Positions 40,488-57,946 of a stretch of DNA of 64,000 nucleotides are shown piece after piece (positions within the stretch are counted from its first letter, which is position 1; each line of letters begins with the position of its first letter). The notes under the pieces were generated by a model, which worked only from the letters and a program-made list of their open reading frames with translations, had not been told where the DNA came from and did not search any database. A program made the position numbers and the translations under genes. Source of the stretch: a virus. Its lineage: Duplodnaviria; Caudoviricetes. The stretch lies in IMG/VR virus record IMGVR_UViG_3300029305_003961, positions 32,664 through 96,663 of that record, one strand, 5' to 3'.

Positions 40488-40898
40488 GGAAAGGGCGGAC
40501 AAACCGCCCTTTCCTTTATAGGGCTCTATACCGGTTGCCTGCGCCCTTTAGGGTGTCATACTCCGCAGGCAGGAAACAAATGAAACCCTCAGACTAAACG
40601 AAAATAAAATGAAAATAAATGTATGGGGCTTGTATATCCCGAATTCATAGGGTTAATATGCGCGATTAAACCCTTGCCCGGAGCGTGGTCGGTGGCCACG
40701 CTCCGAATTTTAATACACCCGGCCCCGTGGTAAAAATTGAAAGTGTACGCGACCGGTGGACACTCTATATGATACGCCCGGAACCGTTGTCAAAAACTTT
40801 ATAAAAATTTTTTTAAAAAACCCTTGACAAGTTATATTGTCTATGATATAATAATACCATCAAGAGGGGATAAACCCCTAAAGAAAGGGATAGATTTT

Positions 40899-41099
40899 AT
40901 GATGATTTTGCGTTTCACTGATAACCATTGGCAATATACTATTGCTACCGCTTCCGCCATACGGCAATATCACATTCACGACTTGGGCGAAGAAGGATAT
41001 TTAGTCCTGGATAATTGCGGTAATCGTGTTTCCATTGAGGACACCCTGCCTTTGGCACAGATTTCCGCACACGAACACTTCAAAACGCGCAGCATTTAA
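40899..41099 (+). CDS. Small early protein
   Basis: Own promoter and AAAGGGA SD. Confidence 0.65.
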   Translation: MMILRFTDNHWQYTIATASAIRQYHIHDLGEEGYLVLDNCGNRVSIEDTLPLAQISAHEHFKTRSI

Positions 41100-41282
41100 T
41101 TATGGTCATCGTTCTGGGGCGTCCAGCCCCAGAATTTCACCCTCTTTAAACCTTCCATAAAATTTTGAAAGCAAATGAAAAATTTGTAAAAAGCATAAAA
41201 AATCCCGAAAAACTCCTTGACAAATTAGTTTTTTGATGTTATAATTAAGGTACAAAAAAGAGATATGAAAGAGGTAATCACT

Positions 41283-41426
41283 ATGAAGTATTTGGTCGAA
41301 ACAAAAATTGGTTGCGAAGTCCTTGATACCTATGAACTGGCAGAAATCTTCTGTTATGAACAGGGCATCCACCCGGAAGAAATCGTGGAAGTCACCGAAG
41401 AAGAAGCCGCAGAAATCTGCGGCTGA
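41283..41426 (+). CDS. Small acidic protein, 47 aa
   Basis: GAGGT SD; MKYLVETKIGCEVLDTYELAEIFCYEQGIHPEEIVEVTEEEAAEICG. Confidence 0.65.
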   Translation: MKYLVETKIGCEVLDTYELAEIFCYEQGIHPEEIVEVTEEEAAEICG

Positions 41427-41478
41427 TTCAAAAAACTATGCTACCCTCTTTAATCTTCCAATAGAAAGGAAAGTCAAT

Positions 41479-41625
41479 ATGTACGAGTTCCATATCCGCA
41501 ATACTCATACCAACGAAAAGAAAATCCTCTTCGGCTATACAGCAAATGATGCGTTCCGGCGCGCCGGCATCGTGAACACCGAACTCTGGGATTGGGAAGT
41601 CGAATTTTACGAATATGTTGATTAA
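41479..41625 (+). CDS. Small early protein, 48 aa
   Basis: AAAGGA SD; MYEFHIRNTH... Confidence 0.65.
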   Translation: MYEFHIRNTHTNEKKILFGYTANDAFRRAGIVNTELWDWEVEFYEYVD

Positions 41626-41790
41626 GGAGTGTCCTTCATACGAGGACACTCCCATATTTTTGAGCCTCGCGCCTACGGACCAGGCGCGAGGAGTTTAGCA
41701 TTTTAACTAGTTTTGGTAAAAAATCAAACCAATTTTTTGTATAATATTACCAGTTGACTTTTCCCGTATCTACTGGTATAATACAAGTAC

Positions 41791-42029
41791 AAGGTGAGGC
41801 GAGGAAAGCGGCCGACAGTGCGGCTTATGTGCGTTCAGCACGGGCGTCGATGCTCCCGTTCTCTGTGTGAAGAGTCTGGTTGTGAGTGGCGGACAAGTGC
41901 TTGAAAACTCTCCCCAGGTCGCCAGGGTGGTCAAGGGCGAACAGAAGCGGGCAATCTCGCAAACCCGCACCAATAGCCGCAATAATTTAACTAGGCGGAG
42001 CGTTTGGTGGTAGCGAACAACCACACCTC
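41791..42029 (+). ncRNA. Candidate ~240-nt structured RNA
   Basis: Follows a promoter, has no SD or ORF; closing AGGTG/CACCT, GCGGCT..GTGCG/CGCAC..AGCCGC and several inner helices. Confidence 0.55.
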
Positions 42030-42215
42030 TTTCGGGCTGCTCGCCTGCGGGGGTGGCGAGCAGAATTTATGATTTTTATACAATTTACATATTTTTCAAT
42101 CTAAAATTTTGTGCAAAATGACAACTTGACTTTTCCCGTATCTCGTGATATACTGGTATCATCAAGGAGGGGCAAGAGTCCCACCGCTATCATCTTTCTT
42201 TTGGAGGTATTCTCT

Positions 42216-42527
42216 ATGGCTAACATTACTATCAACAATACCTGTCCCTTCTGCCGTAAAACCCATTCTGTCGAGGTCGATTATCACTCTTATATCTCTT
42301 GGCAAAACGGCACCCTTATCCAGCGCGCAATGCCTGAACTGACTCCCACCGAGCGAGAGCAACTCATCAGCGGCATTTGTCCCAAGTGTCAGGAGTCCAT
42401 TTTTGGCTCCGACGAGGATGAGCCAGCGGACATTGACTCCGACGAGGATGAGGACTACGAGCCGGCGGACATTGACTCCGATATGGGATATGACCCATAT
42501 TCCGGGTGTATTACAGACGACTGCTAA
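42216..42527 (+). CDS. Zinc-finger protein with acidic repeated tail
   Basis: CPFC...CPKC; duplicated EPADIDSD; GGAGG SD. Confidence 0.7.
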   Translation: MANITINNTCPFCRKTHSVEVDYHSYISWQNGTLIQRAMPELTPTEREQLISGICPKCQESIFGSDEDEPADIDSDEDEDYEPADIDSDMGYDPYSGCITDDC

Positions 42528-42733
42528 GGCGGTCGTCTTTTTTGTTCGACTGCGCGTGGTCCATTGCCACGCGCAGAATTTACAAAATAAACAATTCCTG
42601 GCAATTTTTTTGTGCAAAATGACGAATAAAAAAACTTGACTTTTTTTCACAAAATGCTTGACAAATCCATTAGGCTATGATATACTAATATCACAAAGGG
42701 AGAGGAAATCTCCAAGAGAAAGGACAATGAATT

Positions 42734-43087
42734 ATGAAGTACATCACTAATCGCCGTATCAATGTTCGCACCATCCGCAACTTGGCCAATGATGAAGGCT
42801 TGACCCTTCGCAACGGCAAAATTGTACAGTATAAAACCGGTTGGCAAGTCGGCATCGCCGGCGTAGAATGTAAGACCCCGGAAGAGGTCAGCATTATTCT
42901 CCATAGGGGCCTGGGTCGTACCGGTAATATTGGCATCTGGTTCAGCAACGGGGTCTACTATGTGGACATTAGTAAGCGTATCTCCACCAAGCAAAACGCC
43001 CTGGCGGTTGGCCGGGTAATGAACCAGCAAAGCATTTACGGCTGGGCACCTCGGAAACAGGGGCAACTGGTATGGTGTGCGGAATAA
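42734..43087 (+). CDS. Hypothetical protein
   Basis: Promoter, SD and terminator form a complete cassette. Confidence 0.75.
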   Translation: MKYITNRRINVRTIRNLANDEGLTLRNGKIVQYKTGWQVGIAGVECKTPEEVSIILHRGLGRTGNIGIWFSNGVYYVDISKRISTKQNALAVGRVMNQQSIYGWAPRKQGQLVWCAE

Positions 43088-43432
43088 CCCCCAAGGGAAA
43101 CCTTGGGGTTTTCCTTTCGGCTGCGCGCCCACGAGTGAGGCGCGCAGAATTTCTATTATATCACGCCCTTGACAAAAAATCAATTCGCAATTTGTACAAA
43201 CTTTCGGCCGTATTTTCTCCCGTTTTTGTCTAATATTACACATTGACTTTTGGTGCGGTCTGTGGTATACTATCATTGTCAAGAGGGAATGACAGACGAG
43301 ATACCCCAGTTACAAGGGAGTCCACTTGGGGTACGCAACGGCCGAGCGAGTGGTGTTGGTTGAAAAAAAGTCCAAGAAAACTTTTGAAAACCCCTTGACA
43401 AACCGCCCAAATTGTGATACAATAAGGGCACA

Positions 43433-43509
43433 AAGGCAGATGGGATAGGCACGGTAAGCGGCTTGGGAAAGGCGGCAAGGCGGTTCGACTCCGTCCTAAC
43501 ATCTGTCTT
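43433..43509 (+). ncRNA. tRNA-mimic small RNA (T-arm plus long closing stem)
   Basis: AAGGCAGATG/CATCTGTCTT stem; GGCGG-TTCGACT-CCGTC T-arm; own promoter. Confidence 0.5.
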
Positions 43510-43596
43510 GGAGGGACAAGCCCCACCATTACCTCCAAAATTTTTTAAAAAGGGTCTTGACAAATCGCAAGGTTTGTGATATAATTAAGACACAAC

Positions 43597-43742
43597 AGGC
43601 GAGGGTAAGGCAACCGAGAGAACGGCAGACCCACGAGAGTCAGTAAGACCTCTACCCAATGACCCGACCGCAAGGTGTGTAGGTTTGCGGTATATAAGTG
43701 TGAACCAGTGCCGTTTTGCTGAAGGAATGACGGATTATGCCT
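43597..43742 (+). ncRNA. Candidate structured RNA ahead of tRNA genes
   Basis: AGGC/GCCT, GAACGGCA/TGCCGTTT and ACCGCAA/TTGCGGT helices; no ORF. Confidence 0.4.
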
Positions 43743-43756
43743 ACTACAAAGCAACT

Positions 43757-43829
43757 GTGATGGTAAGTTAATTGGGAAGCACCTGCTGACTTGTCGGTGG
43801 GATTGTGGGTTCGAGTCCCACCCATCACC
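43757..43829 (+). ncRNA. tRNA-like element without canonical anticodon loop
   Basis: Perfect acceptor stem GTGATGG/CCATCAC and T-arm GTGGG-TTCGAGT-CCCAC; aberrant D and anticodon arms. Confidence 0.6.
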
Positions 43830-43836
43830 CTGGTAT

Positions 43837-43912
43837 GACCGCTTAGCTCAGTTGGTAGAGCAACGGGCTTTTAATCCGTGGGCCGAGAGTTCGAGTCTCT
43901 CAGCGGTCACCA
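43837..43912 (+). tRNA. trnK: tRNA-Lys(UUU) with encoded CCA
   Basis: GACCGCT/AGCGGTC acceptor, GCTC/GAGC D-stem, ACGGG-CTTTTAA-TCCGT anticodon arm, GAGAG-TTCGAGT-CTCTC T-arm; 76 nt. Confidence 0.95.
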
Positions 43913-44132
43913 CTTCATGGTACTCCTTTCTCAAAACCCCTCTGTGTAAAAAGCAGAGGGGTTTTGAGCGTTTCGCTGTGGGCCGCAGCGAAACGAGTTT
44001 TAAATAATTATTCACTTTGGAGAAAAAATATTTTGAAACTTTTTTCAAAAAACCCCTTGACAAAATCCCGTAAGTGTGCTACTATATACTCACAGAGAGG
44101 GATGACCCTCCAAGAGAAAGGAAACGATAACT

Positions 44133-44309
44133 ATGAATAACTACCTTTGTGAAGACCTTGAAAACGGTGGCTACTTCTTCGTACAATGCGAAACCATCGA
44201 AGAGGCCGAAGCAATCCTTGAAGAAAATGGCTTCAACCTTGATGAAGTCGACTTCCTTGATGTGGTCGACGATGAAACCGCCGAAATTTACGGCTACGAT
44301 ACCTATTAA
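44133..44309 (+). CDS. Extremely acidic 58-aa protein
   Basis: AAAGGA SD; 18 D/E and no K/R. Confidence 0.7.
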   Translation: MNNYLCEDLENGGYFFVQCETIEEAEAILEENGFNLDEVDFLDVVDDETAEIYGYDTY

Positions 44310-44324
44310 GAGGAGGGCGCTAAA

Positions 44325-44468
44325 ATGTTGAAATTTATTTGCTTAATTCCCGACATTATTGGCTGGATTATGGTGGGCGTGGTTGCCGCCGGCCTGGCCG
44401 TCGCAATGGTAGTGCTTACCAAACTGTGCGTAAAAATTTGGAAAGAATTTCAAGAAGAAAACGCTTGA
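44325..44468 (+). CDS. Small membrane protein, 47 aa
   Basis: AGGAGG SD; one TM helix. Confidence 0.6.
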   Translation: MLKFICLIPDIIGWIMVGVVAAGLAVAMVVLTKLCVKIWKEFQEENA

Positions 44469-44525
44469 CAAATTTTCAAATCCGTGCTATAATACAAGTA
44501 CCAAATGAAAGAGAGGTTATAACCT

Positions 44526-44759
44526 ATGAAATTTTCTATGAGACCCTTTGCTATTAACCAGTTGACTTCCAAAGACTTCTGTGTCCTGTGCGATGCCGAG
44601 AATGTGGTCCGCCAGGTTCTCGACCACTATGGGGACGACCTCATCCTTGAGAACCCCAACACCGGCGAATGCCTTGACACTGCCGAACTGCGGCGGGTCT
44701 TGGGCATCCTGGACTTCCTTTCCACCACCCGGGTGGTCGAAGTCAAGGCTAAAAACTGA
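44526..44759 (+). CDS. Hypothetical protein
   Basis: Promoter, GAGGT SD and terminator. Confidence 0.7.
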   Translation: MKFSMRPFAINQLTSKDFCVLCDAENVVRQVLDHYGDDLILENPNTGECLDTAELRRVLGILDFLSTTRVVEVKAKN

Positions 44760-44946
44760 TACAGTTCTGCCCCCCTAGACCAGGGGGGCGGTTTTTTCAG
44801 CCTCTCGCACGCGGGCGATGCGAGAGGAATTTTGAAATATATACAACTTACCCAATTTTTACGCCCAATTTTTGTGTAAAATGCCAATAGACAAAAATCC
44901 CACAATGTGATACAATACCAGTACCAACAGAAAGGAGTAATTACTT

Positions 44947-45099
44947 ATGGCACCTACTATCTCTCAAATCATTTTCTTGGGCGTTCTCGCTCTTATCGGC
45001 TGGGCGTTCATCGGTTTGGTTCACCTGCCTTGGAACCCCAAGTATGACCCCAAGGGTGATGACCCCTACCGCTACTGCCCCAAGGAAGGAGATGAATGA
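44947..45099 (+). CDS. Small membrane protein, 50 aa
   Basis: AAGGAG SD; MAPTISQIIFLGVLALIGWAFIGLV... Confidence 0.6.
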   Translation: MAPTISQIIFLGVLALIGWAFIGLVHLPWNPKYDPKGDDPYRYCPKEGDE

Positions 45100-45302
45100 T
45101 AATGGAAATCGGATACAGCCACGAAACAATTATGATGAATATCGCCAAATGTCTTGGCAATATTCACGGCGAGTGTGAATGGGCGGCTCATTATCGTACT
45201 ACTGGCGAAATCGAAGATTTAGAAGATTGCGTCGCCAATATCAAGGCAAGCACCAACGAACTGGAAGAATGGGTGGCTTGCTTAAAAGCAGAGGAAATGT
45301 AA
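45096..45302 (+). CDS. Small acidic protein
   Basis: ATGA overlap with the upstream gene; AAGGAG SD. Confidence 0.6.
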   Translation: MIMEIGYSHETIMMNIAKCLGNIHGECEWAAHYRTTGEIEDLEDCVANIKASTNELEEWVACLKAEEM

Positions 45303-45364
45303 AAAGAGGGTTGACAAAACCCTCTTTTTATGTTATATTATTATTAGAAAGTGAGGTAATAAAA

Positions 45365-45517
45365 ATGGCAAAACAATCTAAAAAAATTGACCGCCGAATG
45401 TTCAAAAAAGAGGGCGAGGAACTTCAGCAGTACCTTGCGTTCCGCAAGCGTGGCTCTAGGGTGGAAAGCAAGAAACGCTACAACCGCCAAAAGATGAAAA
45501 GGGGTGATAATGAATGA
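45365..45517 (+). CDS. Basic 50-aa protein, weakly ArfA-like
   Basis: Own promoter, GAGGT SD; AFRKRGSRVESKKRYNRQKMK. Confidence 0.6.
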   Translation: MAKQSKKIDRRMFKKEGEELQQYLAFRKRGSRVESKKRYNRQKMKRGDNE

Positions 45518-45652
45518 CACCTCTTAAAGAATTTGATTTTAAGATGTGGATGTGGGCATTGCGACATAATCGCAGATGCAAGAAAAAAGAAAAACTTTAT
45601 CAAGCATAAAAAATACTTGACAAACCCAGCAATCTGTGATATAATACAAATA

Positions 45653-45945
45653 CAAGGTAAGGGATGCGCCCTCTCCCACAAAGGCGTTGGATGCGAATGG
45701 CAGAAAGGGTATTGCGTATGACTTGGACTTAGGGGTGGCGCCCATAATAGCCAAGATATTTTAACACCTGTTTGTATTGCCTTCGTGGGGTTGGCTCCCA
45801 AAGTATCAGGACGATGAAAGGATTGTGGTCGCATATGGTCTAGTTAGTAGGTTGGCTACCTCGGAGATAGAGCCTACTGGCTTGAGAGGTTGAGTAGACT
45901 GGCTCAAAACCGCAAGTTGGGAATTATATACAGTATAAAAGTTCC
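45653..45945 (+). ncRNA. Candidate ~290-nt structured RNA
   Basis: Lies between promoter 45617 and terminator 45944-45978; no SD-led ORF; multiple nested helices. Confidence 0.55.
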
Positions 45946-46166
45946 TCGGAGGGGCAGACCCCTCCGAGGTCATTTTTTGAGCCGCTCGTTGTCCTGCGCA
46001 ACGAGCGGAATTTTATTATGTAAACCCCTTTCGCATTTTTTCGTCCGCAAATTCGCAAAAAATTTTTTCAAATTTTTTTCCTAAAACCCCTTGACAAATC
46101 CGTTCGGCTGTGGTATAATTCACTTGTAAGTAAGGAACACACCACCGACCAAAAGGAGAATGAAAA

Positions 46167-46385
46167 ATGGAAAAACTGCTTCAGCACATCGAAACCTTGC
46201 TCAAATGGGCAAGTCAGACCCCCGACTACGCAAAGACCTTCTTTAACCAAGCCTTTGGCGCACTCCAGTTCTATATCATAGAACACAATGTTTCCGATGA
46301 TGAATATACCATCTTGGAAACCAAGTGGAATACCACTTATAAACCGTCTTTTGAAGCAATTATGTATGGGGGTGCTGAAAAATGA
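46167..46385 (+). CDS. Hypothetical protein
   Basis: AAGGAG SD; first gene of its operon. Confidence 0.7.
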   Translation: MEKLLQHIETLLKWASQTPDYAKTFFNQAFGALQFYIIEHNVSDDEYTILETKWNTTYKPSFEAIMYGGAEK

Positions 46386-46702
46386 TGAAGCGAAATATCA
46401 CATACCACATCAGCGAGGACAGACTTGACCGAGCCGTATATATTATGCAGACCATCGGCATCGGCAATATTATCAAAGAGGTTCACGCTACCGACGAAAA
46501 GGGTCGCACCTCTTGGCAGTGCTTGACCGACACGGGCGTTATCCTTGTGCTGAATGAGCAAAAGACTATAGTAATTACTCTCTATATCGCAAGTCAGCCA
46601 AAAGTCAGCGCACTGTACGAGGGCAAAACTCCCAGTTGGGTTATCCATATGGTAAAGAAAAACCGTAAATATGCGGAAGAACAAAATAAAGCGAGGGTGT
46701 AA
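46382..46702 (+). CDS. Hypothetical protein
   Basis: ATGA-coupled to the previous gene. Confidence 0.7.
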   Translation: MMKRNITYHISEDRLDRAVYIMQTIGIGNIIKEVHATDEKGRTSWQCLTDTGVILVLNEQKTIVITLYIASQPKVSALYEGKTPSWVIHMVKKNRKYAEEQNKARV

Positions 46703-46704
46703 TT

Positions 46705-47709
46705 ATGGCAAAAAAGAGTTATAACGAAAAAGCAAAGGCGGAATTTCGTCGAGTAATCAATGGTATGGCGTGTCCCACTCTTAATAAGGTGGGACGCAAC
46801 TTGACCCTGATGTATATGGATGGCAAACTTGACCCCTGCTATCACCGAGAGACCCCCATCACTTCCATCCAAAAAATCCTGCTCCGCAAGTCCAAGCCAA
46901 ATGTTCTACTGACTGGACCGGCAGGTTGCGGCAAAACCGCCATAGCAGAGGGCGTGGCGGCGGTACTGGCAGAGCGAGCCATCCTACAAACTGAAAAAGA
47001 AGTCTACGCAGAAGAAACCTATCGCAAAGCGGCAAAGGCTTGGGAAAGAGCCCGGGATAATGCTTGGTATAGCGACCAAGATTTCAACGAGCCTATGCCC
47101 ACTAAGGCAGAGGTGCCATCCGCCTTTCTGTCCAACTGCGTGGTGTATGACCTTCCCCTGTCTGCCTTGGTCAGCGGTACTCAATATCGTGGAGACCTTG
47201 AAAAGCGCATTGAAGAATTGCTGAATGAATGTCGCAGATATCCCAACATCATTCTGTTTATCGATGAAATTCACCAAATTATCGACGCAGGAGAATGCGA
47301 GGGCGGCTCTGGCGTGGCACAGATGCTCAAACCTGCTCTGTCCCGTTGCGATATCCGAGTAATCGGAGCAACCACTACCGATGAAGCAAAAATCCTGATG
47401 AAAGACAAGGCTCTTGCCCGTCGTTTCAATGAGGTGGAAATCGCTCCTTTGTGCGGCAACGCGGCTATTGAAACCGCCGAGGGCATTTTGGCAGACTACT
47501 CCAAGCATCACGGCATTACCACCGAAGTTGATGTGGAACTGATTATGGCAAATCTTGCCACTTTCCTCCCCAAGTCCGTGTTCCCTGACAACTTCATCAA
47601 TGTGGTTGATGAAACCTTAGCAGGTTGTAAATTCGACCGCAAAGAAACTGCCACTACCGCCGACTTTAACGCGACCTTGAGCCGTATGGCAGGCGTAATA
47701 ATTATGTAA
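46705..47709 (+). CDS. ClpA/B/C-type AAA+ ATPase, single NBD1 only
   Basis: GKLDP, GPAGCGKT, SGTQYRGDLEKR, LFIDEIH, LKPALSR, IGATT and DKALARRF motifs. Confidence 0.85.
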   Translation: MAKKSYNEKAKAEFRRVINGMACPTLNKVGRNLTLMYMDGKLDPCYHRETPITSIQKILLRKSKPNVLLTGPAGCGKTAIAEGVAAVLAERAILQTEKEVYAEETYRKAAKAWERARDNAWYSDQDFNEPMPTKAEVPSAFLSNCVVYDLPLSALVSGTQYRGDLEKRIEELLNECRRYPNIILFIDEIHQIIDAGECEGGSGVAQMLKPALSRCDIRVIGATTTDEAKILMKDKALARRFNEVEIAPLCGNAAIETAEGILADYSKHHGITTEVDVELIMANLATFLPKSVFPDNFINVVDETLAGCKFDRKETATTADFNATLSRMAGVIIM

Positions 47710-47886
47710 ACTTAAGACCCCATTCTTCGGAGTGGGGTCTTTTGCCGCTTCCTGGCCGGGGGTCAGGAAGCGAATTCGTTAAAATAACCAAATTACGCAT
47801 TTTTTATTCCGCAAACTTTGTGTATTTTGCCCTCTTGCTTTTTCCCGTAATATGTGATAAAATAACAGTACCAAAAGGGAAAGGAA

Positions 47887-48369
47887 ATGATAATTATGCC
47901 TAAAATGATTTGCTTTGATATGGACGGCACAATTGCCGACCTCTATGGCGTGCCGGATTGGTTGACCAAACTGCGTGCCTATGATGCTTCCCCCTATTTG
48001 ATGGCTGAGCCTATGTGCGATATGGAAGAACTGGCTTTTCTGCTTGAGGTGGCTCAGCATCGTGGCATCGAAGTCCGTGTTATCACCTGGCTCTCCAAGG
48101 ACACCAATCCCCAATACGATGAATTGGTGCGAATTGCCAAGCAGGCTTGGCTCAAGGCAATGGGTCTGCCCATTGACCACTTCCACGGCGTCAAATATGG
48201 GGCAACCAAGGCAGACAGTGTTCGTCGCCATATCGACCTCGCAAGCGGTGAAACCGCAATCCTCTTCGACGATAACGCCAAGGTGCGTGAGGGTTGGCAT
48301 TTGGGTGATGCCTATGACCCCACCGATTGCGATATCTGCGAAGTGCTGAAAAAAGTCTTGGGGTTGTAA
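47887..48369 (+). CDS. HAD-superfamily hydrolase (5'-nucleotidase-like)
   Basis: FDMDGTIAD motif I, K motif III, LFDD motif IV. Confidence 0.8.
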   Translation: MIIMPKMICFDMDGTIADLYGVPDWLTKLRAYDASPYLMAEPMCDMEELAFLLEVAQHRGIEVRVITWLSKDTNPQYDELVRIAKQAWLKAMGLPIDHFHGVKYGATKADSVRRHIDLASGETAILFDDNAKVREGWHLGDAYDPTDCDICEVLKKVLGL

Positions 48370-48426
48370 AATACCCCTTGACAAATCAGCCTACTTGTGC
48401 TATAATAATACCAAGAGGTGAGGGAA

Positions 48427-48576
48427 ATGGATGAAAAAGAAAAGCAGTATTTGAATAAACGGCTTACCGAACTCTTCAACAAGAAGATACAACTTAATCT
48501 TGAAGTGCGCAAAATCGACAAAGAGATTGCTCGTATTTCCAAGAGGTTGGAAAAGGAGATTATTACCGATGAATAA
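48427..48576 (+). CDS. Small coiled-coil protein, 49 aa
   Basis: GAGG SD after a promoter; MDEKEKQYLNKRL... Confidence 0.55.
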   Translation: MDEKEKQYLNKRLTELFNKKIQLNLEVRKIDKEIARISKRLEKEIITDE

Positions 48577-48967: not shown

Positions 48968-48987
48968 TAAAAAGTGAGGTAAATAAA

Positions 48988-49531: not shown

Positions 49532-50947
49532 ATGGAAATCAGTGTAAGAGAATTACAGGCAATCGTCAAGACCTTGCCTATCGGCTTGTATGCCAAGCGA
49601 GGGGTAAAAGTTGACATTGGGGAAAAGGACGGAACCAGTTATTACTGCCCCAATACCGATGCCATAGTGGTATCGTACCCCCAAGTTTGTACCGCCCTAG
49701 CCAATACCACGGACAATAGTCCCTATAAGGAACGGATTATCCGTGGTATCCTTTACCACGAAGTATCCCACGCCTTTATGACCCCAAAAATGCCTTGGAA
49801 TGATGTAGTGAATGTCTTTGAGGATGAACGCATGGAAACCCTCTTGGCAAAGTATTACCACGATGTTGATTTCAAATCCAATGTATATCTGTTCAATGGC
49901 TTTGAAATTGGCAAAGTCCCCCCGGCAGTTGATAAGTTTACTGCTTTTTACAATTTGGTGCGGTTTCGCTCCGGCAAGCCGGAATTGCTGAAAAAGGTCG
50001 AAGAAATCATCGATACTTATAAGGCATTAACCAAAGCAACCAAGCATAGTGGCAAAATCTATGAATATTACTATGCCATTATGGACCTCTATGGGGAGAT
50101 TGATGAACCGGAAAATCCCCAAGAGCAAGAACAGAGCTATTCCGGGGATGTCCGACCCGGGGACGATAACAGCGAGGGTGAACCCGGCAATACCGATACT
50201 ATGACCCCCGGACAAGGTGAAAGCGCAAAGCAAGCCTTGGATGAAGATACTATCCGAAACTTAATGGAAGAGTTTTTCGATAGTAAAACAGACCTGTCCC
50301 TTATTTCCTATTTCCAAACTATTATTGACGGCTTCAACAAGCGCAATAAGGGCGGTTCGGCTATCGGTGGTTATTCCGGGGTATTGAACCCCCGGGCGGT
50401 AAATAGGGAAGATTGGAAAATCTTTGACCGCCCCTTTACCCAAAATTCCAATAACAAATACGGCACTCTCCATCTCAATCTATTCATCGATTGTTCCGGT
50501 AGTTTTTATCCGTCAGAGCAGTTGGTCAACCAAATTCTTTCTGCTCTCTCCCGGGTAGAAAAGAAAAACCCCAACTTTACCCTTGATGTAGTGTTCTGTG
50601 GGTGCGGAGAAAGAGTGGTTAAAACTGCTAGGGAGCGAGTTATTAACTGCCGGGGCGGTAATGACTTAGATAATGATATCTATGATATTTTCCGCTCTCT
50701 CCAAAAGCCTAACACCTACAATTACAACATTGTACTGTTTGACGGAGATGCGTTCTCCAATGCCGGACCTAGACACCGCAAGAACTTTAAGGCGTTCGAT
50801 TTTAGCAACTGTACCATTATTTCCGACCGGGAAAATGAACGATACATTGCTGACACAGTTAATCGAGCCAAAGTAATCTATACCAAAAATTACACCGATG
50901 AATTACTCAATAATCTGAAAAATGTCCTAGCAAGGGCATTTCGATAA
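49532..50947 (+). CDS. Metallopeptidase-like / VWA (CobT-like) protein
   Basis: YHEVSH...NVFEDERME in the N-domain, acidic linker, MIDAS motif IDCSGS and FDGD. Confidence 0.8.
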   Translation: MEISVRELQAIVKTLPIGLYAKRGVKVDIGEKDGTSYYCPNTDAIVVSYPQVCTALANTTDNSPYKERIIRGILYHEVSHAFMTPKMPWNDVVNVFEDERMETLLAKYYHDVDFKSNVYLFNGFEIGKVPPAVDKFTAFYNLVRFRSGKPELLKKVEEIIDTYKALTKATKHSGKIYEYYYAIMDLYGEIDEPENPQEQEQSYSGDVRPGDDNSEGEPGNTDTMTPGQGESAKQALDEDTIRNLMEEFFDSKTDLSLISYFQTIIDGFNKRNKGGSAIGGYSGVLNPRAVNREDWKIFDRPFTQNSNNKYGTLHLNLFIDCSGSFYPSEQLVNQILSALSRVEKKNPNFTLDVVFCGCGERVVKTARERVINCRGGNDLDNDIYDIFRSLQKPNTYNYNIVLFDGDAFSNAGPRHRKNFKAFDFSNCTIISDRENERYIADTVNRAKVIYTKNYTDELLNNLKNVLARAFR

Positions 50948-50968
50948 AAACGAAAAGGAGAAAATACT

Positions 50969-51910
50969 ATGTATATCAATAATGTGTTGGATATTACCGC
51001 TAAGCAGAACGGCTCTTTCGTGGTGGTGCTGAATGGCACAAAGTCCATTGAAACCGACCCCTCCCGGATTTCCGAGTTGGAAATGCTTTATGAAGAATGT
51101 CGCAAGGTTGGCACTGCTAAGCGCCCGGCTGTCTTGGCGGAACTCCAAGAGCAAGGCAAACTTCCCATCTTTTTCCCTTGCGGTGAAACCTCTGTGACCG
51201 ACCCTAAGGAAATTCTCCGGGACGGCATTGCCCGGCTTATGGATTTCTTCACCGAGTTTGAGTTTGAACCCAATTTCCGGTTTATCAATTCCCTTGCCCG
51301 GTGCTTGGTATCTTCTTCCAAGGATGCCACCGATTATATCCACAACTACTTCGAGTTGGTGGATAGTCCCTACGCCCCGGAAGTGTTCGAGAAGATGAAG
51401 TCCGCCGAGTTTAAGAACATTCTTAAGGCGGTGTCTGCGGTTGCCCCCTCTCACAATGTTAACAACCGCTTTAAGATTTACTACGGCTCTGCCGGTACTG
51501 GCAAGACCACCCAAGCGCAGAAAGAAACCGACGGCAGATGCGTGGTCTGTAATAACTCCATGCTCCCGGCTGACCTTATGGAAGATTTCGTCTTTGTGGA
51601 CGGCAAGGCAACCTTTAAGCCGTCTATGCTTTGGCGGTGTATGGAAGAGGGCACGCCCATTACTATGGACGAAATCAACCTCTTGCCTTTTGACAGTTTG
51701 CGTTTCCTCCAGGGCATCTTGGACGGCAAGACCGAGTTCCAGTACAAGGGCAATACTGTCCATATCAAGGACGGCTTTATGGTCATCGGCACGATGAACC
51801 TTGCGGTCAATGGTATGGTGTATGGTCTGCCGGAACCCCTGGTTGACAGATGCTCCGTGATGCAGAAATTCAAGTTGACCGCTGACCAGTTAATGGGAGC
51901 AATTATGTAA
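50969..51910 (+). CDS. MoxR/CobS-like AAA+ ATPase
   Basis: GSAGTGKTT, MDEIN, IGTMN and PLVDR motifs; adjacent to the VWA gene. Confidence 0.8.
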   Translation: MYINNVLDITAKQNGSFVVVLNGTKSIETDPSRISELEMLYEECRKVGTAKRPAVLAELQEQGKLPIFFPCGETSVTDPKEILRDGIARLMDFFTEFEFEPNFRFINSLARCLVSSSKDATDYIHNYFELVDSPYAPEVFEKMKSAEFKNILKAVSAVAPSHNVNNRFKIYYGSAGTGKTTQAQKETDGRCVVCNNSMLPADLMEDFVFVDGKATFKPSMLWRCMEEGTPITMDEINLLPFDSLRFLQGILDGKTEFQYKGNTVHIKDGFMVIGTMNLAVNGMVYGLPEPLVDRCSVMQKFKLTADQLMGAIM

Positions 51911-52235
51911 ACTTAACCCCCACCCACCCGGGTGGGGGTTTTGGTCTGCTTGTTGGCGAACGTCAACAAGCAGAATTTAGAATAAAATTCCATTTTACCA
52001 TTTTTTGGGCCGAAAGTCAATAGGCAAAATCAACAAAAATTTTTCCCGTAATTTGTACAATTTGCCAATTGAATTTTTGGAAACTTTGTGGTAGAATATC
52101 TAAGTAATCACCGAGCCGACCCCCCACCCCCAGTAAAAAAAGTGCTTGACAAATGGGCGGTTTTGTGATATAATGATAGAGCAATGGGGGAACGATGGTA
52201 AAACCCATTGACTAACTTGAAACGAGGTTTTATAA

Positions 52236-53105
52236 ATGCCGAAATATGACAAGCGCAGAAAGTATTATATGGTGCTTGACTGCGAAACTGCGACCTTGCC
52301 ATGCGCAAGCAAATACGATGAGGTCAAGCGGAAAAGCATTGCGATTGCGAAACCGCTAATTTATGACCTTGGGTGGAAGATTGTAGACCGAAATGGCGTT
52401 ATCTACAATTCCACAAACTTCCTTATCTCCGAAATCTTCTCTGTTCCGTCCATTTTCGATACCGCCTATTATGCGGACAAAAGACCTATCTATCTTGAAA
52501 AACTGCGCAAGGGCGAAATCATCTTGACCGATTGGCAGACCGCTATGACCGACTTCTTGGCAGACCTTGAAGTGGTGGAAGCCGTGGGTGCGTACAATTC
52601 TATGTTCGACTTCAAAAAAGCCGTTCCCTTTACCGAGTTGTATGTCAGCAAACTGTATTCCACCGATTATCACAACTGGCTTGCTTGGCAAGAGCGCACT
52701 TGCGATTGGCTTGCCCACGGTGGCAAGACTACTGGCACTACTCCTTTTGAGGAAGATATTTTCCGTTTCCGTGGCAAGACCTATCCCCTTTTCGACCTTT
52801 GGGGTTTGACTTGTCAGCACATTTTGAATTGCGATGCCTATAAGCAGATGTGTCTTGACGAAAAGTGGGCAACCGCAAGCGGAAAGTATTTCAAGACTTC
52901 TGCGGAAACTGCGTTCCGTTTCTTCAGCGGTCAAACCGATTTTGAGGAAAGTCATACCGCCATTGAGGATTGCGCAATCGAAAGTCAGTTGTTTGCGGAA
53001 ATCGTCAAGCGCACCAAAAACAAGTGGGCAATGGGTATCGAGTTTTTCCCTTTTCGGATTTTGGGTACTGTCGATGCGTATGTGGGGAGCAAATTGCTCC
53101 CCTAA
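52236..53105 (+). CDS. DEDDh 3'-5' exonuclease
   Basis: VLDCET, AYNSMFD and HTAIED motifs. Confidence 0.8.
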   Translation: MPKYDKRRKYYMVLDCETATLPCASKYDEVKRKSIAIAKPLIYDLGWKIVDRNGVIYNSTNFLISEIFSVPSIFDTAYYADKRPIYLEKLRKGEIILTDWQTAMTDFLADLEVVEAVGAYNSMFDFKKAVPFTELYVSKLYSTDYHNWLAWQERTCDWLAHGGKTTGTTPFEEDIFRFRGKTYPLFDLWGLTCQHILNCDAYKQMCLDEKWATASGKYFKTSAETAFRFFSGQTDFEESHTAIEDCAIESQLFAEIVKRTKNKWAMGIEFFPFRILGTVDAYVGSKLLP

Positions 53106-53207
53106 TACGAAAAAAAAGTGCTTGACAAATCGCACGGAATGTGCTATAATACATAATGTAAGGGGCGCCACCCCCTACAAAATAAATTTATGAAAGAGGT
53201 AATGACT

Positions 53208-53597
53208 ATGGCAACGAAGAAAACTGTGGTACAGATGTATGAGGAACTGTTGGCAATCAACGGCCTGACCCAGGAGCAGAAGGACTTCCTGGCCAAGCGC
53301 ATCGAAATCACCAAGAAGAAGAACGCCTCTGGCAAGGACGGCGAGCCTACCCCCAAGCAGAAAGAGAAGATGGCGCATAACGCCCTGCTCTGCGACAAGG
53401 TAGTTTCCGCCATGACCCCTGGTGTTTCCTACCACGCAGGTGATATCGTCAAGTTGGTTGATGTCCCCGACATTCCCAACACTCAGAAGTTGACCCCCCT
53501 GCTGACCAGCCTGGTGAGCGATGGTCGCCTGACCAAGGCGGTCGAAAAGGGTCGCTCCGTTTACTCTCTGCCTGCGGACACCGCAGACGAGGGTTAA
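53208..53597 (+). CDS. Winged-helix-like protein, paralog A1
   Basis: MATKKTVVQMYEE...NTQKLTP.LT.LV.DG...KGRSVYSL. Confidence 0.7.
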   Translation: MATKKTVVQMYEELLAINGLTQEQKDFLAKRIEITKKKNASGKDGEPTPKQKEKMAHNALLCDKVVSAMTPGVSYHAGDIVKLVDVPDIPNTQKLTPLLTSLVSDGRLTKAVEKGRSVYSLPADTADEG

Positions 53598-53600
53598 TCG

Positions 53601-53960
53601 GTGGGGGCACAGACCCCCACCCAAGTCGAGCGAATGAGGGCGCAAGGCTACACCGAGGAAGAAATCGAGGATATGCTGAAATGCGACCGAGAAATCGACC
53701 GAGGAGCAAACCTTTTTCCTCTTGACCCCGAACTGGAAGAGGGGGCAAAAAAGGCAAGACGAGCAGACCGCACCGACACCCCCAAAAAGGCGGTGCGTGA
53801 GCGCAAAGAGGATGCCGACAAGCGCACCTTGATTTATCTACTTTCCAATGTGGTGAGAAATTTTGACGATTTGGAGATTGTAAACCCCGAGCGTGAATTT
53901 TTATTCACCTATTGCGGAAAGAGATACAAGGTGGTAATGTCCGTCCCCCGTGGACAGTAA
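53601..53960 (+). CDS. Hypothetical protein, paralog B1
   Basis: EIEDMLKCDREIDRGA; resembles 56341..56763. Confidence 0.65.
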   Translation: MGAQTPTQVERMRAQGYTEEEIEDMLKCDREIDRGANLFPLDPELEEGAKKARRADRTDTPKKAVRERKEDADKRTLIYLLSNVVRNFDDLEIVNPEREFLFTYCGKRYKVVMSVPRGQ

Positions 53961-54116
53961 AAAAGGAGCAGACTTCGGTCTGCTCCTTGACTTGCGCCAA
54001 GGAGCAGAATTTCGATTTTGATTGACCTTTGGAATAAAAAATTTCCAACTTTTTTGGTAAAAAACCCTTGACAAAACTCCCAAAATGTGGTATAATATCC
54101 CCAAGAGGTGAGAGAA

Positions 54117-54350
54117 ATGAAAAAGTTCTTTGAATTGAATAAACCCTACAAGTTTGACCCTACTGACTTAACCGCCTTGATTTATGTGGTTTGCGCCATC
54201 TTTGCGTTCTGCGGTATTGATAACAGTTGGTTGCTCCTTGCCGGCTCTGCCCTTGGTACTGCGTTTTGTTGGCAAGCACACCGCATTAACCTTGTGGTGT
54301 TGAATGTATCCTTATTTGTTTTCAATCTGTTTTGTGTATTTGGGACTTGA
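54117..54350 (+). CDS. Small membrane protein
   Basis: GAGGTG SD; hydrophobic. Confidence 0.65.
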   Translation: MKKFFELNKPYKFDPTDLTALIYVVCAIFAFCGIDNSWLLLAGSALGTAFCWQAHRINLVVLNVSLFVFNLFCVFGT

Positions 54351-54400
54351 CAAATCGCCAAATCTATGATATAATACTAACAGAAAGTGAGGTAAACAAT

Positions 54401-54886
54401 ATGTTTAGTTGGCGTTCGGTAAGAGATTTCTCCGAAGATTTGTTTAATACAAATAATCTCCGCAACGAGGACAATACCTATATGAGCGACTACAACTGCG
54501 GTGGATATGCCCTGGGTACTTTCTCTTGGTACTGCCCCTCTGAGGACGAAGATGCGTGGGGTATGTTTGAGCATCGAAGCCAAGAGGAAATGGAAGTATT
54601 AACCGCTGAGTGTGTAGCGGTTATGCTTGACGATTTCAAGGACTTGCGCTTGATTGAGAGTATGGACGATTTGCGCAAGGGTGAGTATGCGATTGCGTTC
54701 CGTGTGTCCTCCGATGGCGATTTCCACTATGTCAAGCAGTTTTATGGCAAGTGGTGGCGGCATAAGCGAGGGTCTGGTCAAATCTTCCGTATGTCCGAAG
54801 CAGATGTGTTTAACACCATTTGGTGCGGACGATACGATGGACCGCTTGTACTGTTTGCGAAAAAGGTAAGCGGTGAAATGATTTAG
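54401..54886 (+). CDS. Papain-fold (Cys-His) amidase/peptidase-like protein
   Basis: YNCGGYALG...DFHY...WRHKRG; ends at TAG (14 more codons to TGA if read through). Confidence 0.55.
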   Translation: MFSWRSVRDFSEDLFNTNNLRNEDNTYMSDYNCGGYALGTFSWYCPSEDEDAWGMFEHRSQEEMEVLTAECVAVMLDDFKDLRLIESMDDLRKGEYAIAFRVSSDGDFHYVKQFYGKWWRHKRGSGQIFRMSEADVFNTIWCGRYDGPLVLFAKKVSGEMI

Positions 54887-55043
54887 TGGGTCTTGCGGTT
54901 TTGGCGCTTGACCGTCCGGTTTAATTGAACATTTCTGCCCAAAGGCAGTAAAAAACTTAGGCGGAGCATTAAGGCTCCGCCTATTGACTTTCCAAAAAAT
55001 TTTTGATAAAATATAATTACAAAATAGAGAAAGGAGAAAGACA

Positions 55044-55160
55044 ATGACCTTTGAACTATTAAAGGCACTTTTTACCATTGCTCGTTTCTGCGAAAAGTAG
55101 AAGAATTGTAAAGAGTGTCCAATGAAAGAGATTTGCGGGCGGATGCCTTGCGAAATCTAA
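55044..55160 (+). CDS. Cys-rich 38-aa protein with 1 in-frame TAG
   Basis: AAGGAG SD; MTFELLKALFTIARFCEK*KNCKECPMKEICGRMPCEI. Confidence 0.55.
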
Positions 55161-55239
55161 GTGCTTTTGATAAAGCCGACCCACTCCGTGTTAGGGTCGT
55201 TTTTCACGCACGCTAGGTCATTGGAAAATTTTTGCGACG

Positions 55240-55458
55240 ATGAAGCAAACGGAATACGCACGCAGAGTTGACTCAAGTGGACGCATCATCATCCCCTCAC
55301 AACTCCGCGACCAATTAGACATTCGTCCGGGAGATATCTTGGACTTTCATATTCACGAAGAGAACGGCAAGACCTTTCTCTGTGTGGAGTGCGCAAGAGT
55401 CGAGGACGAAATTGAGCGCGCAAAGCGCATCCTGCGAGAAGCGGGAGTATTAAATTGA
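55240..55458 (+). CDS. AbrB/MazE/SpoVT-family DNA-binding protein
   Basis: RRVDSSGRIIIPSQLRDQLDIRPGDILDF. Confidence 0.8.
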   Translation: MKQTEYARRVDSSGRIIIPSQLRDQLDIRPGDILDFHIHEENGKTFLCVECARVEDEIERAKRILREAGVLN

Positions 55459-55895
55459 AACGCTCGAGACCGGAGGCCGCGAGCGTAATTTATAATTGTA
55501 TCACACTTTGGAGATTTTGTCAAGCGGTAATTCTGTACAAAATCTCCCTTTTATTTTCCCAATATCTTGTGCAATATTCCAACTTGATTTTTTATTAAAA
55601 ATATGATATTATATATACATCAAGAGGGGAACAGAACAAGTTCCCACGGCACGCAAAGCCGATAAAATCCAACAAAAAAAGTTGAAAAAACCTCTTGACA
55701 AATTACACATTATATGATATAATGTGTATACAAGGTAAGGGTGCTGTCAAGGTGATTGGGAGCAACGGATACCAAGTCGACAAAGGTGGAACAGAAATTC
55801 CCTTGAAAAAGTCCTTGACAAATCCCCCAACTTATGCTATAATAAGTGTGTTCCCAAGGGAACGAAAAATCAAAATTAAGAAAGAGGTAATGACT

Positions 55896-56285
55896 ATGGC
55901 TACCAAGAAAACTGTTGTACAGATGTATGAGGAAATCAAGGCTATCCCCGGCCTGTCCGCTGAGCAGATTGCGTTCCTCGAAAAGCGGATTGAGATTACC
56001 AAGAACAAGAACGCCAAGCGTGAGGGTGCTGACCCCACTCCCAAGCAGAAAGAGAAGATGGCGGCTGATGCGGCTACCGAGAACGCAGTTCTCTCTGCTA
56101 TGTCCCCCGGTGTGTCCTATAACGCCGGTGATATCGTGAAACTCATTGACCGGGCTGATGTGCCCAATACTCAGAAACTGACCCCCCGGCTGACCGCACT
56201 GGTCAATGACGGCAAGGTGGTTAAGTCTGTGGTCAAGGGTCGCTCCGTCTACTCTCTGCCCTCTGCTGAGGGCGAGGGGGACTAA
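55896..56285 (+). CDS. Winged-helix-like protein, paralog A2
   Basis: Same length (129 aa) and long identical blocks with 53208..53597. Confidence 0.7.
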   Translation: MATKKTVVQMYEEIKAIPGLSAEQIAFLEKRIEITKNKNAKREGADPTPKQKEKMAADAATENAVLSAMSPGVSYNAGDIVKLIDRADVPNTQKLTPRLTALVNDGKVVKSVVKGRSVYSLPSAEGEGD

Positions 56286-56340
56286 AACCCCCAAGGGAGA
56301 GGGGCAACCCTCTCCCCTCCCTAGAAAGTGAGGTAAGTAA

Positions 56341-56763
56341 GTGGCTATCAATGAAAAAGACCCTCGCGTAATTGCTATGCGACGGATGAAATATTCCGAT
56401 TATCAAATCGAGGAAATGCTTGAGGATGATAAGGAAACGGACAGAGGTGTTATCCACGAATGGGATTTGTCCCCAGAGGAACACAAAAAGGCTATGAAGT
56501 ACGCCAATGTTGACGAGCATAAGAAGTCCGCTGAGCCTACCGCCAAGAAGTCCCCCACGGTCTATAATTGGAATACTGAGGGCAAGAAACGCACCGAAAA
56601 TGTGACCAAGGTTGAGTTAATCGCAGTTTTGGCGCAGTTTTTGTCCGACAATACCGATTTGGGATGCGAAAATGTCGAAATAACCAATAAACAGGGCAAG
56701 ATTGCTTTCAAAATTGGTGAAAATGACTTCACTTTCTCGCTGACCCAGCACCGAAAGAAGTAA
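56341..56763 (+). CDS. Hypothetical protein, paralog B2
   Basis: QIEEMLEDDKETDRGV; GAGGT SD. Confidence 0.65.
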   Translation: MAINEKDPRVIAMRRMKYSDYQIEEMLEDDKETDRGVIHEWDLSPEEHKKAMKYANVDEHKKSAEPTAKKSPTVYNWNTEGKKRTENVTKVELIAVLAQFLSDNTDLGCENVEITNKQGKIAFKIGENDFTFSLTQHRKK

Positions 56764-56797
56764 GGGGCGGTAAAACCGCCCCTTATAGGAGAAAAAA

Positions 56798-57088
56798 ATG
56801 AAAGTTTTTATTATCGTCGAGGAATGCCACGGCGCAATCGGTGTAGCAACTTCTCCCAAGTCCGCTATGCGGTGGTTGATTGAGCAAGGCTGGATTGATG
56901 AATATACGGATTTTTTTGTATATCAAGAATCCGATAATGAACAAGAACAAATGACCATCCGCACTTATTGCGACCAAGAAGGCATTGCTGATTGGCAACA
57001 GTGGCTTATTGATAACGCAAGTCCAGAATGGTTAGAATGGCATTTTCTAATTTATCTGCGTGAGCACGACCTTGCGGAAACTGAATAA
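56798..57088 (+). CDS. Acidic hypothetical protein
   Basis: AGGAG SD; followed by a terminator. Confidence 0.7.
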   Translation: MKVFIIVEECHGAIGVATSPKSAMRWLIEQGWIDEYTDFFVYQESDNEQEQMTIRTYCDQEGIADWQQWLIDNASPEWLEWHFLIYLREHDLAETE

Positions 57089-57946
57089 ATATACGCACCC
57101 TATACAAGGGTGCGTTTTTATGTTAACCCCGGGTCGTGGGCGATGCTCACGACCCGAATTTCCGTTCGGTTATTCATAGCGGCATTTTTTCTCTTGAAAG
57201 TCAAATAAAAAATTTAAATTTGATTTTTCCCGAAACCCTTATACCGCACATTGCTTTATGACCGGCCGCTATGGGACATAGCAGGCCGACTTTCAAACCG
57301 CGTTATAATCCGGAAAATTTTCTCGTTCTAGCAACCCTTTGAACGCCATTCTATATTTTCCCAAAAACCTACCGACCCATCCCCAAAAAATTTTATGTCC
57401 AGGAACATCAAAATTTAGCATATTTATCTACCAAAATTCTTTTCACGAATATCTTCTTCATTTTACTACTTTTCTCGTATGTAATTTTTTACCAGGGCCG
57501 CATTAGCCCCATCCGCAATAGAAATGCGTTTTTCTAGCGATTTCCCCTTCTACTTTTTATCATCTCTATTGGAACCAGGAGCCCATCTATGGAAAAGAAA
57601 AATAGTCAAATGAAAAGATGTTCGTTTTTCAAGAAAATCGTGACAAACAGGGCGCTTTTTCGCTATTTTATTTGATTTTTTAATAAATTTATTATATAAT
57701 ATATATGGTGGAGGATAATTTTGCGGCCGAACGGGTGTCTTTTTGCTTAATGCGCCGGCAAAAAAACCATTTTTCTTTTATTATATCATATTTTTTATAA
57801 AAAATCAAATAAAAGCGCTTAAAATTGACATTTTTTATTATTTTTGATATAATTATAATGGAAAAGAATAGGATTTTGAAAACCGCTAAATATAAAAAAA
57901 GGACGCACTAGGCGTCCTTTAAAACACTCTTTCTTACACCTTGGGA

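Follow-up and report, generated by a model that had tools for sequence, protein, structure and literature searches.

In T4-type phages, promoter-early stem-loop (PeSL) cassettes have been described (Arbiol et al. 2010, PMC2839356; Comeau et al. 2014, PMC4122927), in which the stem-loops terminate transcription and mapped crossovers lie in the loop or just past the stem-loop (PMC2839356). Here we analyse an element of comparable arrangement, a GC-rich hairpin mostly of 27 nucleotides (nt) that occurs fifteen times at the cassette boundaries in the early block of an uncultured phage. The window, to which all positions refer, is a stretch of 64,000 nt comprising bases 32664-96663 of a 96,663-bp single viral contig (IMG/VR record IMGVR_UViG_3300029305_003961; CheckV completeness 59%). 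As in PeSL, a stem-loop and a near-consensus sigma-70 promoter, joined by an AT-rich spacer, form a composite that recurs among small, variable early genes; edges of insertions, deletions and reorderings coincide with the unit, and a dedicated recombinase is lacking from both systems. The PeSL features found at this locus are consensus promoters, stable stem-loops, confinement to the early block, changes of order at hairpin edges and many small ORFan-like cassettes. The two differ in that our stem-loop usually comes after a separate canonical terminator, is fixed at 27 nt, keeps internal positions invariant and has a fixed WWTTT tail and few G·U pairs. Furthermore, about 60 nt separate it from the -35 box, whereas the PeSL stem-loop adjoins its promoter, and the carrier is a TAG-recoded siphophage of probable Clostridia, not a T4-like myovirus. 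The initial annotation had presented the hairpins as a candidate undescribed system; the element is real, strongly selected and, as far as our search reached, undescribed, but PeSL is a close functional precedent.

Other known elements share parts of this design. Intrinsic and tandem terminators, too, close a transcription unit with a GC-rich hairpin and a run rich in U, in the same orientation as the genes; here, in contrast, two purines usually stand before the Us, length and bases are fixed and G·U is avoided, while the terminators 3 nt upstream are unconstrained. Integron attC sites are likewise folded palindromes of single polarity, one at each cassette 3' end, in which structure is kept above sequence, but they measure 57-141 nt and have extrahelical bases, R and L boxes and the IntI tyrosine recombinase, none of which accompanies the perfect, bulge-free stems of the 27-nt element found here. 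Repetitive extragenic palindromes (REPs) and bacterial interspersed mosaic elements resemble the hairpins in being short GC-rich extragenic palindromes that lie past gene 3' ends and are flanked by a conserved tetranucleotide; the sequence is common to all REP copies, whereas the arms here differ between copies, and the phages have no RAYT (Y1 HUH) enzyme. Roles reported for REPs include mRNA stability, attenuation and the binding of gyrase. Phage N4 hairpin promoters and the 26-nt terminator motif of the P23-45 virion polymerase (10.1101/2022.12.01.518664) are likewise short hairpins or signals of fixed length that are limited to early regions. They are read by a non-host polymerase; no such polymerase was detected here, and each unit is driven by host promoters. 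Comparisons with a tRNA minihelix, a boxB/nut site, a CRISPR repeat and an RNase III site were rejected for misfits of loop, register or stem length.

Both strands of the whole contig were scanned exhaustively for hairpins with at least seven perfect pairs followed by A(A/G)TT. The scan recovered exactly fifteen GC-rich hairpins, all on the + strand, at 40679-57156. There was no GC-rich copy outside the early block in the 96.7-kb contig, and the few remaining matches were AT-rich chance hairpins. Twelve of the hairpins are 27 nt long, two 28 nt and one 19 nt; the closing pair is C..G in 14/15 and A..T in one (55460), and the tail is AATT in 13/15 and AGTT in 2/15. Every detail of number, length, closing pair, tail and polarity given in the initial annotation was reproduced, and its confinement of the hairpins to 40.6-57.2 kb was upheld both by the scan and by the covariance model R1 introduced below. 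As RNA, the hairpins are predicted to fold at -12 to -22 kcal/mol (z-scores relative to shuffles, -1.6 to -7.3), many of them with 12 pairs and a triloop. In 10-11 of the fifteen, the hairpin is placed 2-4 nt past the T-run of a separate canonical terminator.

The anatomy of the element is fixed well beyond this window. Among 100 independent copies, 80 are 27 nt long and 94 fall within 25-28 nt, while six have longer stems and measure 37-39 nt. The fixed positions are C1, C6 (80/80), G7 (76/80), C12, G13, G14, G22 (80/80) and G27, whereas positions 2-5 and 8-10 vary freely with complementarity retained. In the 37-39-nt variants, counting from the 5' base, positions 11-17 still read YCGGGCG, so the conserved sequence is anchored to the 5' side. 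These fixed positions indicate that the element is not a generic terminator and point to a reader that senses both shape and sequence. In the tail, T is nearly invariant at +3 and +4 (93-96/97), +1 is A in 72/97 and T in 20/97, and +2 is A, G or T (T in 18/97). The A(A/G)TT tail that the initial annotation had described is present in all 15 window copies but widens across the family to a U-rich, terminator-like WWTTT, and one copy of a 182-kb relative has plain TTTTT.

The upstream flank is equally regular. In 41-43 of 52 distinct copies from the five genomes first compared, positions -4/-5 carry the T-run that closes a canonical terminator; in another set of 100 distinct copies, 85/97 have T at -4. 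Overall, the T-run ends 2-4 nt ahead of the hairpin in about 80% of copies. The adjacent canonical terminators themselves range in length from 10 to 40 nt. When candidates were defined by their flanks alone (T-run, 2-4 nt, 27 nt, A(A/G)TT), pairing was bimodal, with 9/9 pairs in 30 of 189 and a background peak at 2-4. The order terminator, hairpin, AATT, conserved motif and promoter, as originally proposed, holds; in full it reads canonical terminator, 2-4 nt, 27-nt hairpin, (A/T)(A/G/T)TTT, AT-rich spacer and host sigma-A promoter.

Fifteen perfect promoters (TTGACA-17-TATAAT, 12/12) lie at 40824-55843 (+), all with a TG extension, besides weaker ones, and 70 promoter-like sites were counted on the + strand at 40-58 kb compared with 30.3 in shuffles. 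As an array of maximal host-type promoters, this part of the window is unusually dense. In 8/15 window copies the next sense -35 box begins 60-64 nt past the hairpin, and the spacers are AT-rich; an example is the promoter at 42126-42154 (+), whose -35 box lies 64 nt past hairpin 4 with the conserved TTTTGTGYAWWWTGMC motif ahead of it. Roughly one strong promoter in two is not preceded by a hairpin. The TTTTGTGYAWWWTGMC motif was seen at 42105-42120, 42612-42627, 44868-44883, 47816-47831 and 49355-49370, in each case a few nt ahead of one of the weaker -35 boxes among the hairpin-linked promoters; it is a candidate regulator site, perhaps for winged-helix early proteins. Antisense sigma-A-type promoters adjoin two hairpins: TTGATT-17-TATAAT at 43155-43183 (-), with its -10 box ending 7 nt from the base of hairpin 6, and TTGACA-17-TACAAT at 55495-55523 (-), with its -10 box ending 8 nt from the base of hairpin 14. 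Across genomes a strong antisense promoter stands beside about 10 of 78 copies, and in each of the 10 strongest cases 7-8 nt separate the end of the -10 box from the hairpin base. An antisense promoter was therefore rejected as a general feature of the element, rigidly spaced though it is where present.

Covariance model R1 was built from 47 copies, taken from the window and four relatives. It finds 14 of the 15 window hairpins at 40.6-57.2 kb, missing the 19-nt copy at 41114, and gave no match in the other 80 kb of the contig. Across 507 kb of related and unrelated sequence its matches fall in early regions only. The element proved to be shared by related phages, with R1 matches in 28/33 IMG/VR records with a related terminase, including 12/13 records at least 90% complete; in every positive record the matches lie on one strand, inside one 10-17 kb block. 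Whole-genome comparison showed that these genomes, of 76-182 kb, are syntenic relatives of this contig. Contigs with a 58-65% identical copy of a 495-amino-acid (aa) early protein carry the element, which is absent where identity is 41-47%. Two of these relatives without the 27-nt element, L005 and L006 (47% identity), have another stereotyped unit end, GAGGGG-NN-tetraloop-NN-CCCCTC followed by CCCTTT.

Compensatory change was assessed in 100 distinct copies from genomes outside model building. Here 97.2% of cells are paired and 252 cells are changed on both sides; covariation is 0.716 compared with 0.154 in shuffles (0/500 reach 0.716) and at most 0.096 with slid partners, and 8/9 pairs have changed on both sides. 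This bears out the earlier claim that structure and length are conserved while the arms vary, although the compensatory pairing is equally expected for a DNA hairpin. In 10 orthologous pairs with recognisably homologous flanks, divergence per site was 1.1% in stems, 12% in flanks and 18% in loops. The boundary hairpins seem to evolve in concert within each lineage.

Wider searches gave little. A megablast of the region against 50,697 phage records and a single-protein locus search in IMG/VR returned no match. The pattern CTGCTCG-N13-CGAGCAGAATT was scanned in 185,579 bacterial and archaeal species, and the inspected matches were nearly all coding sequence of Lon protease (LLEVLDPEQN). The one true element among them lies on a phage-like contig of an Acutalibacteraceae metagenome-assembled genome. 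This narrow test, with a single exact-arm pattern, gave no evidence of a REP-like family in host genomes. The Lon protease loci (L118-L197), where the pattern is widespread in coding sequence, are a trap for pattern searches.

Cassette breakpoints coincide with the element, a relation that the initial annotation had proposed to test. Homology blocks shared with four relatives start or stop exactly at a hairpin edge (for example 47772, 42576, 49310 and 43995), and cassette order differs. In the transposed unit of a 160-aa gene, for instance, homology sets in at 47772 here and at the final base of the hairpin in L001, L009 and L010, with four different hairpins ahead of it. The hairpin moves now with the upstream unit and now with the downstream one. 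Near-identical hairpins stand in unrelated contexts (L003 at 1542 and 3992, L009 at 8069), and at one orthologous hairpin site the inner 13 nt have been replaced. In public faecal DNA contigs over 40-58.5 kb (0.3-1 kb long, about 4x depth), the strain-level joints, which have short sides, lie at repeated promoters and not at hairpins, which is weak evidence given the short contigs. Some public contigs start or stop exactly at the hairpin borders 41691, 44827, 47772 and 42037, which is probably an assembler effect of palindromes rather than biology.

The copies, all on the + strand and numbered from the left, are as follows. Hairpin 1 (40679-40705, 27 nt, tail AATTTT, -22.2 kcal/mol) opens the array and has no canonical terminator just upstream; hairpin 2 (41114-41132, tail AATTT) is the short 19-nt variant, directly past a gene end. 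Hairpin 3 (41665-41691, 27 nt, tail AGTTT) follows the terminator at 41626-41652, and hairpin 4 (42037-42063, 27 nt, AATTT) ends a putative structured RNA unit free of open reading frames (ORFs). Hairpin 5 (42550-42576, 27 nt, AATTT), at whose last base the homology blocks of relatives begin, comes after the terminator at 42515-42538, and hairpin 6 (43121-43147, 27 nt, AATTT), which adjoins an antisense promoter, comes after that at 43089-43108. Hairpin 7 (43969-43995, 27 nt, AGTTT) stands past the terminator of tRNA-Lys, and hairpins 8 (44801-44827, 27 nt, AATTT) and 9 (45982-46008, 27 nt, AATTT) past the terminators at 44767-44791 and 45944-45969. The 3' edge of hairpin 10 (47746-47772, 27 nt, AATTC) is the exact start of homology of the 160-aa cassette. 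Hairpin 11 (49284-49310, 27 nt, AATTA) is identical in L001 and L010, there with a different upstream gene. Hairpin 12 (51946-51973, 28 nt, AATTT) follows the terminator at 51915-51940. In hairpin 13 (53980-54007, 28 nt, AATTT) the 5' arm doubles as the 3' arm of an upstream UUCG-capped hairpin at 53963-53988, so the two folds within 53963-54007 are mutually exclusive; this shared-arm layout recurs in L010 (10876-10921) and not in L003. Hairpin 14 (55460-55486, 27 nt, AATTT), closed by A..T, begins 2 nt past the stop of an AbrB/MazE-like gene and adjoins an antisense promoter, and hairpin 15 (57130-57156, 27 nt, AATTT) lies past the last early gene and the terminator at 57093-57115. A typical canonical intrinsic terminator, a tetraloop hairpin with a T-run at 49253-49276 (+), ends 7 nt ahead of a boundary hairpin, and this layout recurs with terminators at 41626, 42515, 43089, 43936, 44767, 45944, 47715, 51915 and 57093 (+).

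We tentatively favour the reading that the element is a stereotyped back-stop terminator and insulator, which also marks the junctions of cassette shuffling. It would be the stem-loop half of a PeSL-type composite terminator-promoter boundary module, with termination and insulation as its functions and host polymerase as its reader, an assignment that is plausible but falls short of probable. Such modules would split the standard-code early region into about 15 units transcribed by host RNA polymerase. The host sigma-A polymerase would initiate at the very strong promoters, and most of it would stop at the unit's own canonical terminator; a polymerase that reads through would transcribe the stable 27-nt hairpin and its WWUUU tail and stop or stall there, perhaps aided by a factor that senses the invariant positions. 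This stop would keep the transcription of one cassette out of the next promoter. At hairpins 2, 13 and 14, which lack a separate terminator, the boundary hairpin is the only hairpin at the unit end. Because a module stands at every junction, it would also be the site at which cassettes are gained, lost and reordered by ordinary recombination.

Several observations favour a terminator and insulator. The element tracks unit ends rather than promoters, it is co-oriented with transcription in every genome, and its tail is U-rich, with a plain T-run in some relatives. At three unit ends in the window it is the sole hairpin after the stop codon, and L005 and L006, which are without it, carry another stereotyped terminator at equivalent places. 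Furthermore, no phage polymerase, recombinase or HUH gene was found as an alternative reader. Other observations weigh against this reading. A plain back-up terminator has no need of an exact length, yet 80/100 copies measure 27 nt next to neighbours of 10 to 40 nt, nor does it need the invariant internal pairs C6-G22 and G7-C21 or the conserved CGG at 12-14. Purines at +1 and +2 part the stem from the U-run and should weaken termination. On this point the tail is mixed: 5/15 window copies passed a lenient terminator filter and roughly 20% of the copies in the family carry T at +1 or +2, but most have two purines between stem and Us. G·U makes up 1.0% of pairs 1-8 compared with 6.3% in neighbouring canonical terminators (Fisher p = 1e-7), although the model-based count is somewhat biased against G·U; in the flank-defined candidates too, G·U is rare and no commoner than other mismatches. 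Finally, both strands fold equally well by folding energy, which is unusual for an RNA read from one strand. Depleted G·U, equal strand folding, invariant pairs, exact length and rigid promoter spacing together suggest a sequence and shape reader, possibly acting on DNA.

A DNA-level signal is accordingly the strongest rival, though we consider it rather unlikely. In this case the extruded hairpin or cruciform, or the duplex itself, would be read by a sequence- and structure-specific host or phage protein as an insulator, roadblock or nick site, with polarity set by the asymmetric flanks. In favour stand the roughly six-fold rarity of G·U relative to adjacent RNA terminators and the equal folding of the two strands, and invariant pairs within a regular helix are easier to read in B-DNA than in A-RNA. 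The promoters stand at fixed DNA distances (7-8 nt for the 10 strongest antisense -10 boxes, 60-64 nt for the sense -35 box in 8/15), the AT-rich flanks favour extrusion, and the family encodes its own gyrase. On the other hand, extrusion does not come easily to a palindrome of 27 bp whose spacer is 3-9 nt, at the DNA level there is no obvious reason for the U-rich tail or for so strict a link to terminator T-runs, the G·U bias of the model applies here as well, and the search for a reader gave no candidate. Taken more broadly, as a DNA-level or dual-strand, G·U-free signal of fixed geometry that would be a new kind of boundary or insulator acting through topology, roadblock, nicking or cassette exchange, the idea is doubtful but deserves to be kept beside the terminator and insulator.

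The initial annotation had postulated a structure-specific reader and a self-contained system. Specificity for shape and sequence is indeed implied by the fixed positions, but no reader protein was found, and searches of the contig and five complete hairpin-bearing relatives revealed no enzyme of the system's own. The tyrosine recombinase family PF00589 is absent from these genomes, controls having given matches, and the Y1/HUH transposase family PF01797 (RAYT) is absent from the phages, the five complete genomes included. The Rpb1-type RNA polymerase family PF00623 gave no match in the contig or the five complete relatives; the search with PF00940 had no working control. No DxDGD-type metal-binding motif was found, and the giant proteins have no polymerase match in PDB or PHROG, although very divergent polymerases could escape such searches; the giant virion proteins resemble adhesins, with leucine-rich repeat, DUF285 and laminin-G domains. 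Gyrase (GyrA) and a membrane-anchored GIY-YIG protein were rejected as readers, both being present in hairpin-less relatives and so giving no co-occurrence signal.

An early protein pair, A (about 130 aa) and B (119-140 aa), occurs in 24/28 hairpin-bearing and 0/5 hairpin-less records (Fisher p = 0.0005). The pair was rejected as the reader since it lies in the same region as the hairpins, so that fragments lose both, and since B is missing from two near-complete hairpin-bearing genomes. Protein A is a generic winged helix; its likeness to Z-alpha is at fold level only, and the Z-alpha recognition-helix Asn and Tyr are, by eye, not kept. Protein B gave no fold match, and both match only viral hypothetical proteins in a protein atlas. 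In the window, two paralogous A/B gene pairs lie at 53208-53960 and 55896-56763 and are kept across hairpin-bearing relatives.

It is improbable that the hairpins are RNA processing or stability marks, beside which read-through or antisense transcripts are cut, or which protect them as a terminal stem-loop. The hairpins are very stable, often with 12 pairs and a triloop, their single-stranded AU-rich tail (ARUUU) resembles AU-rich endonuclease sites, and sense and antisense transcripts can both fold at the palindrome; the antisense promoters, where there are any, have their predicted start at the hairpin base, which would make the hairpin a 5'-terminal stem-loop. However, transcripts ending at the upstream terminator never include the element, strong antisense promoters accompany only the small minority of copies counted above, and no phage ribonuclease candidate was found.

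A dedicated recombination substrate driving cassette exchange, whether attC-like, REP/HUH-like or Xer-like, is less probable again. The proposal draws on the single folded, co-oriented palindrome at each cassette 3' end, as in attC, on a 10+7+10 layout that resembles recombinase core sites, on homology blocks that end at either hairpin edge with the hairpin moving with either neighbour, and on the near-identical hairpins in unrelated contexts and the 13-nt swap at an orthologous site. The enzymes are absent from the five complete hairpin-bearing genomes, and the stems are without extrahelical bases or target duplications. Moreover, crossover within the element between unlike copies should leave hybrids with non-complementary arms, but all copies keep complementary arms and so there is no trace of such crossovers; the strain-level joints at repeated promoters in short public contigs argue, weakly, in the same direction. 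The exchange site suggested in the initial annotation is therefore not upheld.

Its further suggestion, a hairpin promoter for a virion-delivered non-host RNA polymerase as in N4, can be set aside as very improbable. In its favour, a conserved purine pair directly past the hairpin could be a start site, the first copy stands ahead of the first cassette, very large virion proteins without a family match exist (1403 aa here, 1647-2667 aa in the 182-kb relative), and P23-45 offers a known case of a polymerase fused to the tape-measure protein. Against it, searches of the contig and complete relatives turned up neither a polymerase family nor a metal-binding motif, every cassette has a strong host sigma-A promoter, the hairpins track terminators and not promoters, and the last copy has nothing downstream to transcribe.

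The element punctuates the host-takeover region throughout a family of gut phages that are abundant yet uncultured and whose genetic code changes between early and late genes. Should it prove to be a back-stop terminator coupled to a promoter, the PeSL idea would reach from T4-like coliphages to distant siphophages of probable Clostridia, and the hairpin would offer a compact, ready-made insulator part. If it is read as DNA, it would point to a structure-specific protein and a new way of partitioning dense, strong transcription units. Under either reading, R1 marks early regions and the direction of transcription in metagenomic contigs of the family.

We assign the phage to the phAss-1 group, TAG-recoded siphophages of the gut for which a tape-measure protein of 3149 aa and, as a guess, a Clostridia host have been reported, in a description silent on hairpins, promoters and terminators (PMC10607447). 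The late genes, including terminase and portal, lie on the - strand at 1-38157 and are open only with TAG as a sense codon, probably read as Gln; the tape-measure protein has 3153 aa (ORF 11983-21444, -) with 94 in-frame TAGs. To the left of the window, the contig carries replication genes (gyrB/gyrA, NAD ligase, DnaB, RecJ, Pol III alpha and NrdD). The early block at 40.6-57.2 kb on the + strand has a GC content of 42-48% compared with about 34% elsewhere, and those of its genes that were read are open under the standard code, in contrast to the recoded late genes. It consists of many small genes and ORF-free RNAs, each behind a host-type promoter.

Promoter-driven ORF-free cassettes that resemble structured RNAs lie at 41791-42029, 43280-43360, 43430-43540, 43600-43835, 45650-45940 and 55730-55800. 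Two ORF-free cassettes have T-arm-like GGTTCGA(C/G)TCC stretches near the tRNA-Lys(UUU) at 43837-43912, which was the sole call in the window by ARAGORN and Rfam (gathering level), with no amber-suppressor tRNA called. Finally, a 289-aa early protein at 52236-53105, without a Pfam match, is kept in all relatives, the hairpin-less ones included, and has an H-x4-D stretch (SHTAIEDC) resembling the ExoIII motif of DEDDh exonucleases.

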